Source of the DNA: Escherichia coli | Lineage (GTDB): Bacteria > Pseudomonadota > Gammaproteobacteria > Enterobacterales > Enterobacteriaceae | Strand: one strand, 5' to 3' | NCBI RefSeq assembly: GCF_030013595.1 | Contig: NZ_CP122768.1 | Length of the DNA: 64,000 nt | In this document: positions 2,121 to 24,432 of the stretch, in pieces | Layout: each line of letters begins with the position of its first letter | How positions within the stretch are numbered: the stretch's first letter is position 1 | The notes under the pieces: generated by a model | Databases searched by the model: none | The model's input: only the letters and a program-made list of their open reading frames with translations | Told to the model about the DNA's origin: nothing | Program-made: the position numbers and the translations under genes

Positions 2121-5100
2121 TCAGCTGATACTGATGCCTGCGGTGGCTTTCTTCATCACCACAACCAGCAAATCGCTGATACTTGCTGTGGGATACCAGT
2201 TATTTACCAGCCATGCTGACACCGAAAACTCCAGTGTCATGTGACCGTGACCGGCAGGCATATCAATAACACCACTGTAAATCAGCGTATTATCCAGCGC
2301 GGTACGGTTATAAATTTCAGCACCGTTTTTCCGTACTATCAGACGGCATGAGGAGTAAATATCAGTATGCTCTTTCTCATGTTTAGCGCCGCTGAATGCC
2401 ACCGCCGGAATAACAATCTGCCGGTCAAACGGCTGATCGTCATAAACCCTGACGGTGATGGTCCCTGATGGCCACCGTTCCGGTGCACGGGAGTCCCGGG
2501 GGAAAGCTTTGCCCACTGTTTTAACGAGATCGCCTTCAATCTGGTTCGCGGACAGTTTTCCCAGAACCCGACAGTTCTCGTTAATCGTGACGTTGTTGAG
2601 CGTCCCGGAGTTCGCATTCACGTTACCGCTGATATCGGCATTTTTCGCCGTCAGCCGCCCGTCCGGTGTCAGGGAAAATGCCGGTGGATTTCCGCCGCTG
2701 GTAATGGTGGGAGCCGTCAGGCGTTTCAGGAACACGTCGTTCATGAATATCTGATCGCCCTGACCAACAAACATCGGCTTTGTGTTGCCATTCGCAGGAT
2801 TAATCATCGCAATCCGGTCAGCAGCCAGAAGCACCTGACTCTGCATACCTGCTGGCGTATTCTCAATACCGGCTCCGATACCCGCAATATAAAGGCGTCC
2901 GTCCTTCATCTGCTGCAGTTTCACGGCCCACATGCTGTTCAGGTTATTATTTGTATCAACCTGAACTTTCTGTATCTGCTGGATTGCCGCGCTCTGATTT
3001 TCCAGTTTCTTATTGACGGTCTGTGTGATTTCATTGCTGACATCCGTAATGGACGTCCTGATTTCAGCCAGGTCAGGCGCAAGCTGATCGTTATCAATCT
3101 GCGTCCACAGCTCCTGAGCCAGATGGGTTTTCCCTATCTCGCCTTTGAAAAAATCCAGATAGCCGGATGCGTCATCACTCGGCTGACCGACAGCCTCCAC
3201 GAATGCCGATTTGCCAACAGTGTTCACACTGCGAACGTAAAAATAATAATCATGGCCCGGCTTAATATTGATACTGGCAGCTATCCAGTACAGCGCCGTA
3301 CCAAGATAGCGCGCTGTGGTTTCAACCTGCCTGATATCCGCAATCCGCTTTTCCGAGAACCAGAACTCAAACTGTACCGTCGGATCATAAACGGCAAGAT
3401 GCGGCGTGGCGGTTATCTGAAAATAGCCCGGCGTCAGCTCAATCCGCGACGGTGCTGCCGGTGCGGCAATCCGGAACGATACCGATGCCGGATCGCCCTG
3501 CTGTCCCCACGCATTTACCGCCCGGACTGTCAGCCTGTAGTTCCCCAGCGCCAGCTGCCTGAAGCGGTATGTGGTTTCCGTCGTCCGGGCCGTGCTGACC
3601 AGCCGCTCACTGCCGTCATCGGCGGCCACGGTCAGGCGAAGCATAAAGCTCACACCCTTCACCACCTTCGGCGTGTCCCAGCGCGCCAGCACCTGATACT
3701 CCCCACTGTCTGCGGTGACTTCTGCGGTCAGGTGCTGCACCGCTGGCGGCGTGACACCATTCACCGTGCCGCTCTGGTCGCCGTCAAAGTGCGCCCCGTT
3801 ATCCACGATGGCTTCTTTCTCCGGTACATGCTGCACGGCAGTGATGGCATACGTGCCGTCATCGTTCTCACGGATACTCACACAGCGGAACAGGCGCTGG
3901 CGCAACGTCGGCAGCTTCAGCCCCCACACGCTGTATTCTGCAACGCCGTCAGGAACACGGCTCACTTTCACCTTCACACCGTCGGTGACGGACTGAACCT
4001 CCACGCTGACCGGATTGCCACTTCCGTCAACCAGGCTTATCAGCGTGGTACCGGAGGATGGCAGCGTGATTTCACGGTCGAGCGTCAGCGTCCGGGTCTG
4101 GCTGTTCACCGCCAGCACGCGCCCGCCGGTGCTGATACCGGCATAGTCATCATCGCAGATTTCAATGACATCGCCCGGCACATGGCGAAGCCCTTCTGCG
4201 CCCACGCTGAAATCCACGGTCTGCGTTTCCAGCAGTTCCGTTTTAATCAGCCACAGCCCGGCGCGGTGTGCCTGCCCCCGGCTGGTACAGCCAAAGGCAT
4301 CCATCTTCGTAACATTACGACCGTAACGGGCAATGGCCTGCGTATCTTCAACAAGCTCTGTCGCCGTCTCCCAGCCGTTATCCGGGTCAATCCAGTTCAC
4401 CTCAACGGCATTATGGCGGTCCTTCAGGGCGCTGAAGCTGTAGCGGAACGGCGCGCCATCATCCGGCATCACCACATTACTGCGGTTATAGGTCCACACC
4501 TTATCCGACGGTCGGTCCTGCACGAACGTCAGCGTCTGCCCGTTCCATACCGGCATACAGCGCATCGCCGAGCAGAAATCGCTGAGCACATCCCACGCCT
4601 TACGTTGTGTGGTCAGCCAGGCATTACAGGTGATGCGCGGCTCCGTGCCGCCAAAACCGTCCGGCACCGACTGGTCGCAGTACTGGCCGATGACATACAG
4701 CGCCCATTTATCCACATCTGCCGCACCAAGACGTTTCCCCATGCCGTAGCGCGGATGGGTCAGCATATCCCACAGACACCAGGCCATGTTGTTGCTGTAT
4801 GCTGGCTTAAACGTTCCATCCCAGATACCGCTGTATTGCCGCGTCTGCGGGTTATAGTTCGACGGCACCTGCAGAATGCGCCCGCGCAGATGATAATTAC
4901 GGCTCACCTGCTGGCTGCCGAACTGCTCCGAGTCCACCTGCACGCCGACCAGTGCCGTGTTCGGGTAGCACTGTTTCACATCTATAATTTCGGTGTATGA
5001 CGACCAGAGCGTTTTGTTCTGCAGCTGGTCTGTGGTGCTGTCCGGCGTCATCCTGCGCATCCGGATACTGAACGGGCGCGGCGGCAGGTTATCCACCACC

Positions 5101-10562: not shown

Positions 10563-10989
10563 ACCGGACTCCTCCTGCGATCCCTTCTGATACTGTCATC
10601 AGCATTACGTCATCCTCCGTCATGTCCGCCACATCCGGGGAAACGGGGATAACTTCATTCACGTCCGGGCCAAAGCGGACGCCTCCGGCAAGCCCTGCCG
10701 CTTTCTGCATCAGCACATCATCTTCAGGCTCTTCGTCAGCCTCACGCCGGTTCAGCAGACTGAAATCCAGCGGATGCATATCCGGATCGCTGAAAAACAG
10801 GCTGAGCACGGTGTACGTCAGCCCGGAAAAGTGCATATCCAGCAGAACATCATGAAAATAATGGGTACTGTAAAAGCGGTGCCAGTCGGCATACTCCGTG
10901 GATGACATCCCGGCAAGCATGGCACGCCAGTCGGGTCGCCCCATCTCGCGCGCCAGTTTCAGGGCAAAGCTCAGCTCACCGTCGAACAC
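10555..10989 (-). CDS. T: Tail assembly chaperone T segment (expressed as a G-T fusion by -1 frameshift)
   Basis: The ORF VFDGELSFALKLAREMGRPDWRAML... begins at the slippery site and overlaps the G 3' end. Confidence 0.9.
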   Translation of the reverse strand: MFDGELSFALKLAREMGRPDWRAMLAGMSSTEYADWHRFYSTHYFHDVLLDMHFSGLTYTVLSLFFSDPDMHPLDFSLLNRREADEEPEDDVLMQKAAGLAGGVRFGPDVNEVIPVSPDVADMTEDDVMLMTVSEGIAGGVRYG

Positions 10990-21252: not shown

Positions 21253-21945
21253 ATGTCCAGAGAAGGAACGTTAGATTTATTGCAAGAAGTTGAAGAAACC
21301 GTTGAAATATTAAAAGATACGCAACAAATAAAACCAGTAAAGGTTAAATCAATACTTGAAAATTTAAGAAGCGCATTAGAATACGTTGCGAATGATAGTT
21401 ATGAAAAACATACCACTAACCAATCAACCCCTCGGCCAAAAATTTATTTCCCATACGGCGAGAAAAAATTTTTAGATGCTTTCTTTATTAAAAAATTAAA
21501 CTGCCAGCAACCTGAATTATCTCCATTATATGCAGTTTTTGTTTCAATCCAAGACTATCAAACTGGTAATAACTGGCTTGGAATGATGTGTAACCTCACG
21601 AACGAAGCAAAACATAGGCAACCAATCCCATTGAGTGAAGATAGTATTGTTCGAGGAATAGATGTTAATATCAATGGGTTTGGATTAATTAAGGCAGATG
21701 CTACATCAAAAATCATTTTCAGAGATAATTTCACCAATGGACAGAGAATTGAAGACTTCACCATTGAAAATGGTAAAGTTGAAAAATCAGGGAACGGAAT
21801 ACCCATCAATATTAACATGACCGAAGAGAAAAAAATAAGATTCCACGGTACAGATTATGAGGTTATTCCTTTTGTAGAGTTATGTCTAAAAGAAATAAGA
21901 GATTTTGTTAATGAAGCATATGAAATTTTAGATGCCATTGAATAA
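21253..21945 (+). CDS. Hypothetical 230-aa protein, AT-rich moron in the bor position, antisense to the late operon
   Basis: The long ORF lies in a markedly AT-rich segment. A GGAG is 7 nt upstream of the ATG. An upstream TTCAAC-17-CATAAT promoter-like element lies at about 21163-21191. I recognise no family. Confidence 0.7.
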   Translation: MSREGTLDLLQEVEETVEILKDTQQIKPVKVKSILENLRSALEYVANDSYEKHTTNQSTPRPKIYFPYGEKKFLDAFFIKKLNCQQPELSPLYAVFVSIQDYQTGNNWLGMMCNLTNEAKHRQPIPLSEDSIVRGIDVNINGFGLIKADATSKIIFRDNFTNGQRIEDFTIENGKVEKSGNGIPININMTEEKKIRFHGTDYEVIPFVELCLKEIRDFVNEAYEILDAIE

Positions 21946-22040: not shown

Positions 22041-22562
22041 TCAATTGTAATTTGATGTCCTCACCGACTCATAAACGCGCTCACACGTCATTCCAGCCCG
22101 GTAGCTTTCGTCAGATCGCTCAGCATAATATCGAGCTTCTTCTGCAAGGCGGCCGAGCATGTCGGCGAGCACTGCGGCGTCGGCTCCGGCTGTTTTGCTT
22201 CTGACGGCAGCGGCAAGATCTGCGGTGTGCTTTGCGGCGTCCAGGCGGGCGGCAAGCTTTGTTGCTTCGGTGCGCAGCTGGTTAACAGTGGCAGACAGGC
22301 CAGCAGCAGTGGCAGCAGATTTAGCTGCTTGTGCTTGTGCATCTTTTACAGCCTCATCACGGGCAATTATGCGCCCTTGTTCAATCATGCGGGCTGCGGT
22401 CTGCGCGTTCGCTGTTTGCGATGATTCCGCGCTGTCACGTTCCGCCCACTTTTTTTCCCAACCGCGGCTACACCATATATTTCCAGCGATAAACGCACTG
22501 GTCACTAGTACCGCGGCAACAATAAGCTGGGAGCACAGGCTCACTGGTCTATCCCCCAGCAC
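22041..22562 (-). CDS. Rz: i-spanin Rz
   Basis: It has an N-terminal TMD ([18 protein letters not shown]) and an Ala/Gln-rich coiled coil. It overlaps the endolysin stop. Confidence 0.85.
22088..22342 (-). CDS. Rz1: o-spanin Rz1 (lipoprotein embedded in the +1 frame of Rz)
   Basis: It has the lipobox LPLLTSC and a Pro-rich mature part, and lies entirely within Rz. The true start may be internal. Confidence 0.75.
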
Positions 22563-23074
22563 GTCAACGCGCTTTCCTGATCACGGCGAATAACCTGACC
22601 GTAACAGTTATTTGAACGAATGCGGCAATCACGCCCCCTGTCCTTAATCCACCAGCGAATCGCCTCGCATGCACCTTTACGATCACCAGCATTCAGCCGC
22701 TTATAAAACGTCGACGGAAAACACTTACCGGGGCCAATGTTATAGGGACAAAATGACGCGATACCCGCTTTCTGCGGTTCGGTCAGTGGTACTTTAATAT
22801 TGCGCTCCACCCATGCCAGCGCCTTATCACGTTCAATGGCGTTCACACGGTTGCATTTTTCCCTAGACAACTTCATGCCGGGAACAACAGGCTTACCGTC
22901 CACCAGAATGGCACCACGGCAGATGGTCCAGATACCAGTACCATCACGGTATGCCGTGGTGTGGTTACCTTCTTTTTCGTCCAGAAACTGGTCGAGAATA
23001 TCAGGCGCAGGCGCACCGACGGCAATCAGTGCCAGAACGGCAGCTGACAGGCCGTATTTGATTTTTGCATTCAT
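22541..23074 (-). CDS. R: SAR (signal-anchor-release) endolysin, T4-lysozyme fold
   Basis: 177 aa with a weakly hydrophobic Gly/Ala-rich N-terminus, [17 protein letters not shown]. The motif [16 protein letters not shown] fits the E-D-T triad spacing. It is paired with a pinholin. Confidence 0.85.
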
Positions 23075-23201
23075 GGATATTTATCAGGATTTATCAGTTT
23101 CTAATCTATAGATATGTTAAGCACTCAGCCCGTCAGTGGTGGATACTGGCGTATGTAATAAAGGGGGGATGGCTGATTACCTCTGATAAGGGAATGTAAC
23201 T

Positions 23202-23498
23202 ATGAACGGTATAGATCCATTCAAACCAATCAGTAAGCAACTTGATGTGGTATTACCACAACTGATAAAACACGACGACCTTCTGGATAAAGTGTTGCCT
23301 TTTTATATTGCTGTTACCGCAAAATTATCAGGTAAAACTCGAGAAGAGGTTCTCAAATATAACATGCTGGCTTTAGAAACAATTTTTGGCTCAGAAAAAG
23401 CGGGAAAATCACCCAAAGAGCTGGCAGAATCTCAATTTGCTTATATGACAAATATAAGAGTATCCGAAATCTTTGATAAGCTACCAGACATTGAATAA
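23202..23498 (+). CDS. Hypothetical 98-aa protein (between endolysin and holin, opposite strand)
   Basis: AAGGGA lies 8 nt upstream of the ATG. The sequence is AT-rich and looks helical. A hairpin plus T-tract starts 6 nt after the stop. Confidence 0.55.
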   Translation: MNGIDPFKPISKQLDVVLPQLIKHDDLLDKVLPFYIAVTAKLSGKTREEVLKYNMLALETIFGSEKAGKSPKELAESQFAYMTNIRVSEIFDKLPDIE

Positions 23499-23503
23499 TT
23501 TCT

Positions 23504-23523
23504 AAGCGGCAGTAATGCCGCTT
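23504..23523. terminator. Hairpin shared by the convergent orf98 and orf72
   Basis: AAGCGGC-agtaat-GCCGCTT is followed on the plus strand by tatatttttt. Confidence 0.6.
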
Positions 23524-23741
23524 TATATTTTTTCAGCCAAATTTTTCAAGAACTGTTTGGCATGTTTTACCGCAGTAACTTCATAATAATCCAAGCCAGC
23601 TCCTTCAAGTCGCTCAAGGGTGATGTTCAGATCAAAAATTTCACCGGCAAAATGTTCTTTGTCCTGTAACGTTAAGATTACCGTAACTTTATTCTCAAAA
23701 TTGCGGATCCCTTTCACAATCAGTTCATAGTTTTGAGTCAT
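23523..23741 (-). CDS. Hypothetical 72-aa protein immediately downstream of the holin
   Basis: The ATG is 4 nt after the holin stop and is preceded by GGGGAGAG, the SD position normally used by the endolysin gene. MTQNYELIVKGIRNFENKVTVILTLQDKEHF... Confidence 0.6.
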   Translation of the reverse strand: MTQNYELIVKGIRNFENKVTVILTLQDKEHFAGEIFDLNITLERLEGAGLDYYEVTAVKHAKQFLKNLAEKI

Positions 23742-23745
23742 TGAA

Positions 23746-23961
23746 TTACTCTCCCCGTGCAGCCTTTCGTCTGTCTTCTCTGATTTTGAAATACAGATTT
23801 GTCAGATAAGTCAAAAAGCCCAGAACTAGACTTCCCAGCACACCAATTGCAGCCCACTGTGACGGACTGACCTGATCCAACCACTGCAAAAACCAGTATC
23901 CCGCACTACCAGCGGATGTTCCGTAGGCAATGCCAGTTGAGATTTTGTCCATTGATTTCAT
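23746..23961 (-). CDS. S: Phage-21-type pinholin S (dual-start S71/S68)
   Basis: [71 protein letters not shown] matches S21 as I recall it. It has Met1/Met4 dual starts and a GGAGG SD. Confidence 0.9.
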
Positions 23962-24079
23962 AGCAACGCCTCCGCCAGTAACGGATTGCGTAGTTCTTAT
24001 ATTGGGAAGGGAGAAAAAGAAGACCGCAGCATAACTATCACTGATGAATTCAGGATAGCCAGTGGCTACGGCTCAGTTA

Positions 24080-24155
24080 TGGTGCTGGTTAACGGACTTG
24101 AACCGCTACCCATTCGCTTACAAGGCGACCGCTCTACCATTGGAGCTAAACCAGC
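24080..24155 (-). tRNA. tRNA, hand-folded anticodon UGU (Thr)
   Basis: 76 nt. GCTGGTT acceptor; GCTC/GAGC D-stem; anticodon loop CTTGTAA; T-arm AGCGG-TTCAAGT-CCGTT; AACCAGC-A-CCA 3' end encoded. There is one G:A mismatch at 27:43. Confidence 0.75.
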
Positions 24156-24160
24156 ATATT

Positions 24161-24235
24161 TGGCGGGACAGCGTGGACTCGAACCACGATAAGAAGGTTA
24201 ACAGCCTTCCGTAATGACCTTTATACGACTGACCC
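24161..24235 (-). tRNA. tRNA, hand-folded anticodon GUU (Asn)
   Basis: 75 nt. Anticodon arm GAAGG-CTGTTAA-CCTTC; T-arm CGTGG-TTCGAGT-CCACG; CCA encoded. The acceptor stem has a T:T mismatch at 4:69 and the D-stem is weak. Confidence 0.65.
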
Positions 24236-24298
24236 AAATAAAAAATCCCGAAACCGTTGTGCAGGCTCTAACTATTACCTGCGAACTGTTTCGGGATT
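24236..24298 (-). terminator. tR-prime late terminator
   Basis: AATCCCGAAAC ... GTTTCGGGATT stem followed by a U-tract. The sequence is as in lambda tR-prime. Confidence 0.85.
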
Positions 24299-24432
24299 GC
24301 ATTTTGCAGACCTCTCAGCCTGCTATGGTTGGAGTTCCAGACGATACGTCGAAGTGACCAACTAGGCGGAATCGGTAGTAAGCGCCGCCTCTTTTCATCT
24401 CACTACCACAACGAGCGAATTAACCCATCGTT
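24239..24432 (-). ncRNA. 6S late leader RNA (pR-prime to tR-prime transcript, contains qut)
   Basis: The region is nearly identical to my recollection of the lambda 6S region. The length from the predicted start to the U-tract is about 194 nt. Confidence 0.7.

Follow-up and report, generated by a model that had tools for sequence, protein, structure and literature searches.

A YdfR-family gene, a convergent reverse gene and a structured RNA leader between the holin and endolysin genes of an Escherichia coli lysis cassette

What separates the holin gene from the endolysin gene in this lysis cassette, and do the intervening genes take part in lysis? The cassette lies in a 64,000-nucleotide stretch of Escherichia coli DNA (contig NZ_CP122768.1; “the window” refers to the whole of this stretch). 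An earlier note on it had described a 670-bp insertion with two small convergent genes, one made with the lysis proteins as a possible timing factor and the other positioned for expression in the lysogen. All of the features listed there were recovered where the note had placed them (Table 1), including the convergence of the 98-aa ORF on the 72-aa ORF. The holin gene has 95.5% DNA identity to S of phage 21, and the lysozyme R begins with a hydrophobic SAR-like segment (maximum Kyte-Doolittle value 1.87, residues 9-27). The two small ORFs have a GC content of 36.0-36.1% compared with 46.8-56.3% for S, R and Rz.

Table 1. Features of the interval from holin to endolysin, in coordinates of the window
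Feature	Position	Strand	Evidence or remark
S21-type class II holin (pinholin)	23746..23961	(-)	71 aa; Pfam Phage_holin_2_1, PF04971, E 8.6e-36
Holin stop TAA	23746-23748	(-)	
SD GGGGAGAG in last holin codons	23749-23756	(-)	serves next gene (72-aa ORF)
72-aa ORF, short-form DUF1327/YdfR-family	23523..23741	(-)	PF07041, E 1.2e-26
Intrinsic terminator of 98-aa gene	23504..23533	(+)	8-bp stem, 4-nt loop, then TATATTTTTT; terminator scan
98-aa reverse-oriented moron gene	23202..23498	(+)	phrog_25324, E 1.6e-60
Structured 5' leader of 98-aa gene	23123..23204	(+)	RNAalifold, pair counts, covariance model
Upstream block of reverse gene, overlapping 5' flank of R	23075..23122	(+)	alignments of upstream regions
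rrrQ-type lysozyme R (endolysin)	22541..23074	(-)	Phage_lysozyme PF00959, E 4.6e-23

Composition of the interval between S and R

The 72-aa ORF starts at an ATG 4 nt past the holin stop, 9 nt from the GGAG core of GGGGAGAG; it does use this Shine-Dalgarno sequence, as had been proposed, and phage 21 uses the same one for R. Its product matches PF07041 at 93.2 bits (cutoff 25, profile positions 1-71 of 93) and is identical to residues 1-72 of K-12 YdfR at 42 of 72 positions, and the relationship between the two proteins, which the earlier note could not verify, is one of homology (DUF1327, E 1.2e-26). The note's placement of ydfR between essQ and rrrQ in the K-12 prophage Qin was likewise correct: there, as in the window, the gene directly follows a class II holin gene and precedes an rrrQ-type lysozyme gene, with the same junction of SD, S stop and ATG, and the shared region spans the domain that binds the N-terminal half of RNase E (PMC13232886). 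Qin YdfR, however, has 103 aa, its stop overlaps the rrrQ ATG, and there is neither a spacer nor a reverse gene, whereas the protein of the window consists of the 72-aa domain alone, and its last helix differs (...FLKNLAEKI). This shorter protein is soluble by sequence, without a transmembrane or signal segment, and its predicted fold consists of three β-strands and a C-terminal helix (AF2 pLDDT 83.5).

In E. coli lambdoid prophages the place between an S21-type holin gene and an rrrQ-type lysozyme gene is usually taken by a ydfR-family gene: a match to the S-ydfR junction is present in 2198 of the 5426 complete E. coli genomes compared (roughly 40%), and 56 of the 5426 have the full form seen in the window. 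We compared the S-ydfR-R slot of mEp460, 606R7, BL21, APEC and Qin, and also phage 21, which is without a ydfR gene. The 98-aa gene is missing from phage 21, mEp460, 606R7, Qin and most S-ydfR-R cassettes. A recurrent cargo slot between holin and endolysin, suggested in the earlier note, is borne out, with at least four alternative contents. DNA homology of the 72-aa gene to the standard cassettes stops at 23581, and a Cronobacter module aligns to positions 23733-23125 with 78% DNA identity over 609 bp. For the module as a whole, the analysis shows its anatomy and mobility, the selection on its genes and the structure of its RNA.

The interval is best explained as a mosaic of two layers, in which a common YdfR-family gene has been fused to a mobile, low-GC forward/reverse cassette; together with the working proposed for the pair below, we think this explanation somewhat more probable than an even chance. 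Extra genes do part the holin from the endolysin relative to phage 21, whose S and R overlap, but the layers are two and not a single insertion of 670 bp; the variable module measures merely ~450-600 bp (roughly 23581 to 23090-23133) and appears to have entered by recombination inside ydfR, which is the common resident. On this reading one crossover fell inside the DUF1327 coding sequence, near 23581, and the other in the conserved moron upstream block beside R, at 23090-23133. The import replaced the last ~19 codons of the resident ydfR and the spacer to R. It brought in the C-terminus of a short-form DUF1327 gene, a terminator that works in one direction, and the reverse 98-aa gene with its upstream block and structured 5' leader. 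Codons 1 to ~54 of the 72-aa gene resemble resident ydfR, and codons ~54-72 are part of the imported module. The flanks of the module have ~52% GC, compared with 36% inside.

Both ORFs are, as judged by substitution patterns, real genes under purifying selection. The 72-aa gene has a dN/dS of 0.19-0.38, and the 98-aa gene a dN/dS of 0.08 against its Cronobacter homologue; for more distant pairs of the latter dS is saturated, with dN at 0.24-0.38. The earlier note had held that frame-disrupting changes in related cassettes would speak against the genes; among 16 protein clusters and ~35 loci there were none.

The reverse gene and its RNA leader

The 98-aa protein is soluble, with a predicted four-helix fold (AF2 pLDDT 84.5), and its family forms 16 clusters at 90% identity; a profile search among 1.8 billion proteins found 6 representative clusters. 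These searches and the substitution rates mark it as a narrow orphan family subject to strong purifying selection. One of the 6 clusters is a eukaryotic FF-domain protein (E 8.5e-5), which we take as a chance match, the 98-aa protein having no Pfam FF match. Remote homology to the HK97 gp23 family is possible (hhalign probability 64.7%, E 6.2e-5, 65 columns); tblastn gave nothing beyond phage Evi. Searches with both small proteins found no match among PDB sequences, nothing meaningful in NCBIfam and no family of the PADLOC-DB defence models at E up to 1.

The hairpin AAGCGGC-AGTAAT-GCCGCTT at 23504-23523, which the earlier note had described as common to both ORFs, is present, but it is not a symmetric shared terminator: the terminator scan scores it on the (+) strand alone, where it is followed by TATATTTTTT, and it therefore ends the 98-aa gene only. 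Since the (-) strand has no U-tract, late transcription should read through it. All the other copies have an analogous GC hairpin separating the two genes. Given its absence from related genomes, its deviant GC content and its own terminator, the 98-aa gene can be classed as a moron. Its placement for expression in the lysogen agrees with these hallmarks (its own terminator, a conserved upstream block, 36% GC against ~52% in the flanks), and we infer that it is expressed there.

Its promoter would lie in the upstream block, where a putative -10 element, TATGTT (23113-23118), is found 6 nt ahead of the leader hairpin; a sigma-70 consensus scan of the block gave no 9/12 match, the best being TTATCA-16-TATGTT with 8/12. 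The tandem repeat ATTTATCAG-G-ATTTATCAG occupies precisely 23079-23097, and its first copy corresponds to a family-wide ATATCAGG block. The repeat exists as described earlier but is not specific to this locus, being conserved ahead of R in nearly all S21-ydfR-R cassettes, whether these carry a reverse gene or not. The endolysin start is indeed devoid of a recognisable SD (upstream ...CTGATAAATCCTGATAAATATCC-ATG, no GGAG-like motif), and this, like the repeat, is a conserved trait of the whole cassette family. Two further candidate features were rejected: a LexA box in TACTG-N9-CAGG, where the spacing is 9 and not 10 and the left half is missing in the window, and a conserved upstream ORF from the ATG of ATGGCTGA, which is GTG or CTG in some copies, with varying stops and frames.

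The leader contains a single long hairpin with strong covariation. In its helix P1, TCAGCC (23125-23130) pairs with GGCTGA (23171-23176), in P2 23131-23138 pairs with 23144-23151, and a purine-rich 3' bulge of 19 nt spans 23152-23170. Then come an anti-SD-like CCTCT (23180-23184), the SD AAGGGA (23188-23193) and the ATG of the 98-aa gene at 23202. Across copies, 97% of cells are paired (RNAalifold and pair counts), P1 is invariant in sequence, and P2 shows compensatory changes at 6 of its 8 pairs; cells with double changes number 72, whereas shuffles gave 17.9 and slid controls no more than 10. The bulge holds an SD-like GGAGG that, with the anti-SD-like CCUCU, flanks the true SD. Pairing of the two as P3, a pseudoknot or alternative pairing, is a possibility (88% paired, almost no covariation).

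The covariance model R1 scores the window copy at 81.5 bits (E 1e-18) and those of HK022, ES18 and HK97 at 85.1, 76.6 and 66.8 bits. A permissive Rfam cmscan (E up to 10) of 22800-24300 returned two tRNAs and chance-level matches, with none in 23100-23204. The window has a single copy; phi80, the Qin region of K-12 and the cassettes with a 90-aa reverse gene showed none. Elsewhere the leader precedes more than 15 unrelated small genes in reverse orientation, among them HK97 gene 23, HK022 gene 23 and ES18 gene 25, and many of the genes it accompanies are without a small convergent partner. Opposite-strand genes flank both sides of 45 of the 63 distinct copies found by a search with an exact-pattern pre-filter. 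A search of the accessible literature found no described moron leader and no function for HK97 gp22/gp23; the leader is apparently an undescribed, conserved RNA hairpin that dozens of prophage cargo genes, unrelated to one another, have in common. In lying at or close to the predicted 5' end it resembles the ompA-type 5' stem-loops that stabilise E. coli mRNAs, and SD-sequestering leaders, with neither of which it has a sequence or Rfam relationship.

Forward partners and alternative explanations

The two ORFs do not behave as independent cargo: the 98-aa family moves with a small forward partner, and into tail operons too. A convergent partner, either a short DUF1327 protein or a member of a 93-95-aa family, accompanies ~12 of ~14 distinct lineages, and the pairs are found between the tail genes H/M, M/L and I/J, and also ahead of a holin, behind an Rz-like fragment, or separating S from R. 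Pairing is not obligatory, as three lineages (L018, L043/L045) have no small partner. Short DUF1327 genes also occur in tail operons far from any holin, always beside a reverse moron (L020, L041, L044, ES18 gp24). Homology between DUF1327 and the 93-95-aa partners is unproven (hhalign probability 0.65%, and only weak phmmer matches, in a tiny database); a homology search with the 94-aa partner found one cluster only.

The pairs annotated in the deposited genomes of HK97 (22/23), HK022 (22/23 “srb”) and ES18 (24/25) are organised like that of the window, with convergent small forward and reverse genes breaking a late operon, a terminator between them, and a shared upstream block and leader hairpin (R1 67-85 bits). 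Cassettes of this kind were first seen in HK97 and ES18. ES18 gp24 is a DUF1327 protein, as is the 72-aa protein. These pairs lie in tail operons (I/J or M/L), whereas the window module is in the lysis cassette and fused in frame to the resident ydfR, and the HK022 and ES18 reverse genes encode proteins of families other than that of the 98-aa protein. An architectural precedent, and only that, is offered by phi80, in which a reverse-oriented defence gene, expressed in the lysogen, breaks up the Q-dependent late operon beside a late-expressed counter-defence gene (TaiEcA/AtiEcA; He et al. 2024, PMC11364771). This non-contiguous operon encodes a tail-assembly-inhibition defence, the small forward late gene neutralises the reverse gene, and Q expression lowers the reverse gene's product (PMC11364771). 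The phi80 genes overlap head to head (divergent) whereas those of the window are tail to tail (convergent), Tai has 204 aa, phi80 has no leader motif, and no sequence similarity was seen between the window proteins and TaiEcA/AtiEcA (phmmer E above 0.5 for all pairs).

Could the pairing have arisen from insertion-site preference alone, the region 3' of small forward morons tolerating a cassette of promoter, leader, gene and terminator while the proteins have no functional connection? The range of unrelated genes behind the same leader, many of them unpartnered, the 98-aa lineages that stand alone, and the two partner families without detectable homology would all fit. We nevertheless consider it unlikely, for the 98-aa family keeps its forward partner in most lineages, across five kinds of genomic position, E. 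coli and Cronobacter share the pair as one conserved stretch of DNA, and short DUF1327 genes pair with leader-bearing reverse genes of at least two unrelated families; a third reverse gene, this one without the leader, is found paired with long YdfR. That the hairpin works in the late (-) transcript or as DNA, whether as an RNase processing site freeing the R mRNA or as a recombination site, is very improbable. It abuts an R gene without an SD, the invariance of P1 is as expected of a site recognised by a protein or nuclease, and recombination junctions fall at the edges of the element; yet it always stands at a fixed distance upstream of the SD and ATG of the reverse gene, whatever adjoins its other side, and on the (+) strand G-U/U-G pairs far exceed C-A (15 G-U compared with 4 C-A cells in an independent set; U-G at one pair in 26 sequences). 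Action as sense (+) RNA is favoured because the G-U/U-G pairs, which are mismatches on the (-) strand, so outnumber C-A.

Phage 21 has no ydfR gene and lyses normally, and this speaks against the proposal that the 72-aa protein sets lysis timing or is an accessory factor on the pinholin/SAR-endolysin pathway, with the 98-aa gene as unrelated cargo in the same slot. Such a role would suit a gene kept in strict S-R synteny across thousands of cassettes and linked to the S stop, the presence of long-form ydfR without any reverse gene, and a genetic screen, cited in PMC13232886, that tied ydfR to envelope integrity. It is less easily reconciled with a soluble protein devoid of membrane or signal segments and with the short DUF1327 genes found away from holins beside reverse morons. 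The sole experimental data on the family point to binding of RNase E and RNA (PMC13232886), and we regard the lysis-timing role raised in the earlier note as quite improbable.

Possible working of the pair

Timing of expression and protein function in the module are inferred. A fragment of K-12 YdfR, residues 1-72, binds the N-terminal domain of RNase E and is co-purified with RNA, and overexpression of ydfR has little effect on the transcriptome (PMC13232886). [quoted passage not shown] DUF1327 also has a function that does not depend on the 98-aa protein, since ~2000 genomes carry long-form YdfR genes and no reverse gene beside them.

In the lysogen, the 98-aa gene would be transcribed from its own upstream block, on an mRNA beginning at or just before the leader hairpin, which may stabilise the message, gate its translation, or both, and ending at the terminator. 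After induction, Q-modified polymerase would transcribe S and the 72-aa gene, cross the 98-aa gene in antisense, and go on into R and Rz. Translation of the ydfR-family gene starts from the SD in the last codons of S, and the late transcript would yield the 72-aa protein with the lysis proteins and cover the 98-aa mRNA with antisense RNA. Such an arrangement would constitute a non-contiguous operon. By analogy with Tai/Ati of phi80, the reverse gene most likely encodes a prophage-expressed protein of benefit to the host (defence or exclusion), and its forward partner a lytic-phase counter-measure or modulator.

A bolder reading joins two claims: that the 82-nt leader is a new, widespread class of cis-regulatory RNA that marks and controls a population of reverse prophage morons in Enterobacterales, including HK97 gene 23, HK022 gene 23 and ES18 gene 25, and that the DUF1327/98-aa pair is a two-state switch, in which a hairpin-protected mRNA gives a defence or exclusion protein in the lysogen and, in the lytic phase, antisense late transcription and the RNase E-binding YdfR-type protein remove or neutralise it. 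Taken together, we judge these unlikely to hold.

Roughly 40% of complete E. coli genomes have a YdfR-family gene in a lysis cassette. The short DUF1327 domain travels with reverse morons into tail operons and corresponds to the RNase E-binding fragment, and for these reasons the question about YdfR shifts from lysis timing to the control of RNA and RNase E or the neutralising of a prophage-expressed partner. If the pair behaves like Tai/Ati of phi80, it would add a defence/counter-defence pair carried in lysis cassettes. The leader hairpin offers a sequence handle for finding lysogen-expressed cargo genes, with more than 15 unknown families in a small sample.

The interval between S and R

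Minus-strand reading of 22400-24200 and a listing of the ORFs located every feature of the earlier note. The hairpin that it described as shared by the two small ORFs is indeed present, but a terminator scan scored it on the + strand only, with TATATTTTTT next; it is therefore the terminator of the 98-aa gene and not a symmetric one serving both. The N-terminus of lysozyme R is hydrophobic and SAR-like; membrane segments are absent from both small proteins. As in phage 21, tRNA-Thr, tRNA-Asn and a Q gene lie upstream of the lysis genes. Beyond Rz/Rz1, the position of the 230-aa reverse ORF is occupied by bor in phage 21 and lambda; this ORF has no NCBIfam match, and PADLOC returned only a chance-level BrxC hit (E 0.008).

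Features of the lysis region, and elements at loci compared with it
Feature	Position	Strand	Remark
Holin S	23746-23961	-	Stop 23746-23748; Pfam Phage_holin_2_1, E 8.6e-36
GGGGAGAG	23749-23756		SD serving the 72-aa ORF (ydfR)
72-aa ORF	23523-23741	-	ATG 4 nt past holin stop
Hairpin AAGCGGC-AGTAAT-GCCGCTT	23504-23523		Between 98-aa and 72-aa ORFs
98-aa ORF	23202-23498	+	Convergent on 72-aa ORF
Leader P1	23125-23130 with 23171-23176	+	Invariant TCAGCC pairs with GGCTGA
Leader upper stem	23131-23138 with 23144-23151	+	8 bp continuing P1
Leader bulge		+	19 nt, purine-rich, 3' side, …AGGGGGGAU
Leader 3' end		+	UUA-CCUCU, then SD, ATG
Tandem repeat ATTTATCAG-G-ATTTATCAG	23079-23097
Lysozyme gene R	22541-23074	-	No SD; Pfam Phage_lysozyme, E 4.6e-23
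230-aa reverse ORF	21253-21945	+	Just downstream of Rz/Rz1
TCAGCC-N(30-60)-GGCTGA match	10736-10805	+	Sole other match in the window
ydfR stop/rrrQ start overlap, K-12 Qin (L171)	4055-4058		ATGA
Two leader copies, viral contig L079	4296-4377; 2244-2325
Two leader copies, viral contig L081	3174-3258; 12156-12235
Two leader copies, viral contig L089	6470-6552; 4342-4422
Late-strand terminator, HK022 (L173)	1497-1525
Late-strand terminator, ES18 (L174)	1501-1522

In phage 21, S and R overlap with no gene between them and the SD serves R, whereas in the window and in Qin the corresponding SD serves ydfR. The 72-aa ORF matches DUF1327 (PF07041; E 1.2e-26). The gene order essQ-ydfR-rrrQ that the earlier note gave for K-12 Qin is correct, and the two proteins are related, K-12 YdfR and the 72-aa protein being identical at 42 of 72 residues. 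Qin has neither a spacer nor the 9-bp repeat between ydfR and rrrQ; the stop of one overlaps the start of the other, and R is translationally coupled to ydfR there. At least four kinds of content occupy the S-R interval among annotated relatives, including YdfR alone, of 103-116 aa (mEp460, 606R7, APEC 16-1068, S10, K-12 Qin); a 114-aa YdfR with an overlapping reverse 90-aa gene, phrog_2411 (783R2, BL21); and a 185-aa gene with a 75-aa DUF1327 gene and a reverse 95-aa gene. Conservation across DUF1327 proteins (P0018-P0132; loci L002-L009) extends over the first ~70 residues; the C-terminal tails are highly polymorphic, giving lengths of 72, 84, 99, 103, 104, 114, 116 and 119 aa; several clusters resemble frameshift variants.

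With an 801-bp probe across the region, the S/ydfR junction was matched in 2198 of 5426 complete E. coli genomes, and at least 80% of the probe was present in just 56 of them. From S to codon ~54 of the 72-aa ORF the DNA resembles that of standard cassettes; the similarity ends at 23581 and restarts at 23090-23133, immediately ahead of R. In Cronobacter, the stretch 23733-23125 is matched at 78% by a locus in a different lysis cassette, one with a GH108 endolysin, and the match takes in the short DUF1327 gene, the hairpin, and the 98-aa gene together with its 5' region. GC content is 36% in both small ORFs, against 47% in S, 52% in R and 56% in Rz. What varies is a module, smaller than the insertion of about 670 bp proposed earlier; the simplest account is that the module was gained by recombination, with putative crossovers inside the DUF1327 coding sequence and in the conserved block adjoining R.

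The 98-aa family and its forward partners

The 98-aa gene is a real gene of an orphan family (dN/dS 0.08 against the Cronobacter copy). Its 16 clusters at 90% identity come from E. coli, Cronobacter, Serratia, Escherichia sp., Buttiauxella and Yersinia, with lengths of 97-100 aa throughout and 27 invariant positions; a profile search of 1.8 billion representatives yielded six clusters only. Of 14 distinct lineages, about 12 have the gene convergent on a small late-oriented gene, whose product is a DUF1327 protein of 71-73 aa in some and in others belongs to a 93-95-aa family which looks unrelated to DUF1327; three lineages (L018, L043/L045) have no partner. The pairs are found in the H/M, M/L and I/J tail-gene gaps, before a holin, after an Rz-like fragment, and between S and R. 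An AF2 model of the 98-aa protein has four helices (pLDDT 84.5), and a search for structural neighbours returned nothing informative. The family profile also matched weakly (E 8.5e-5) four FF domains of a eukaryotic 1077-aa PRPF40-like protein (P0136); the 98-aa protein itself has no Pfam FF match, and this is probably a chance resemblance of short helical units.

A leader hairpin common to many cargo genes

Aligned 5' regions of the 98-aa homologues, gathered independently of any RNA pattern, revealed a conserved element for which RNAalifold predicts a 14-bp hairpin. In this set compensatory changes occur at six of the eight upper-stem pairs, with 25 double-change cells against 9.9 in shuffled and at most 8 in slid controls. 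A covariance model found 67 copies (64 distinct) among the collected loci, with 97% of cells paired, up to six pair types at some pairs, and 72 double-change cells (17.9 shuffled, at most 10 slid). Many of these loci were collected by the exact pattern TCAGCCYR…ATGGCTGAT, so that the invariance of P1 there is by construction; P1 is equally invariant in the independent sets (98-aa homologues and blastn hits). The U-G at one pair in 26 sequences and the excess of G-U over C-A cells (15 against 4, independent set) point to the leader acting as RNA from the sense strand of the reverse gene. A second pairing, between CCUCU and the GGAGG of the bulge, is 88% paired with hardly any covariation; the likeness of its 3' arm to the 3' end of 16S suggests that SD/anti-SD competition may operate. 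The leader has no Rfam match, and RefSeq holds no annotation under leader-only matches in other E. coli genomes. Within the window, the match at 10736 lacks covariance-model support and was taken as chance, and no copy of the motif stands at the 230-aa ORF.

Downstream of the copies lie ORFs of at least 15 PHROG families, every one of unknown function (DUF1883, retropepsin-like, Zn-ribbon, small beta/alpha and several helical families). In 45 of 63 distinct copies the large ORFs on both sides are on the opposite strand, and most copies have three upstream blocks in common: an intrinsic terminator for the opposite strand, TACTG-N9-CAGGAT, and CCCTGG(T/A)TA(A/T)NGT 6-8 nt ahead of the hairpin. 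Three single viral contigs (L079, L081, L089) each carry two copies before different cargo genes, so one phage is able to hold several such cassettes. A canonical late-strand intrinsic terminator, GTAGCCRCC-N4-GGYGGCTTTTTT, stands just upstream of the moron upstream block in most copies, inside a Q-antiterminated operon. The HK97 and ES18 annotations list it as a putative terminator. The window lacks it and has the start of R in its place.

The 9-bp repeat and the SD-less start of R, likewise present as reported, are features of the cassette family and not a mark of insertion, since CAGAAAC(C/T)GATAAATCCTGATAAATATCC-ATG precedes R in nearly all S-ydfR-R cassettes with or without the reverse gene. 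The first + strand repeat copy corresponds to ATATCAGG, a block found family-wide in moron upstream regions, and the R ATG stands where other leader copies carry TACTG. Cassettes without the reverse gene keep a degenerate -10-like block and look like deletion derivatives. Cassettes with the 90-aa reverse gene overlapping the 3' end of a long YdfR (L004, L006, L009) have a -10-like block in common with the window, and their leader is only a short CAGCCTG/CAGGCTG hairpin which the covariance model did not detect.

Precedents and possible function

Whole-element blastn against deposited phages matched HK022, HK97, ES18, HK633, mEp043/213/506, SPN3UB and others. The element lies upstream of HK97 gene 23, annotated as 'reverse moron product', of HK022 gene 23 ('srb') and of ES18 gene 25, and each of these reverse genes converges on a forward 'moron' gene. 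ES18 gp24 is a DUF1327 protein, HK97 gp22 groups with the 93-95-aa partner family, and the 98-aa family aligns with that of HK97 gp23 (hhalign probability 65%, E 6e-5). The window module is thus a lysis-cassette member of the HK97/ES18-type forward/reverse moron pairs.

The sole experimental data on DUF1327 are from a 2026 study (PMC13232886), in which a two-hybrid screen baited with RNase G yielded a clone of the first 72 codons of K-12 ydfR. [quoted passage not shown] The 72-aa protein of the window consists of exactly the domain encoded by those 72 codons. Our AF2 model of it has three strands and a helix (pLDDT 83.5), with weak RNase H-like and dsRBD-like neighbours.

A tested parallel for the architecture comes from phi80, where taiEcA is reverse-oriented within the Q operon and lysogen-expressed, its forward neighbour atiEcA counteracts it during the lytic phase, and Tai is lowered by Q expression (PMC11364771). 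The phi80 proteins are unrelated in sequence to the window pair, their genes overlap head-to-head whereas the window genes converge, and no leader is present; the window pair resembles Tai/Ati in its layout without being a member of that family. We infer that the 98-aa gene would be expressed in the lysogen and shut off by antisense late transcription, that the 72-aa protein may bind RNase E, and that the two may stand in a defence/counter-measure relationship.

Most of the earlier reading holds, but the locus belongs to kinds already known, the YdfR slot and, within a non-contiguous operon, a moron pair of the HK97/ES18 type. Three findings appear to be new: a moron module joined in frame to a resident ydfR, a 98-aa family that is consistently paired with a small forward gene, and a conserved leader hairpin common to many prophage cargo genes.
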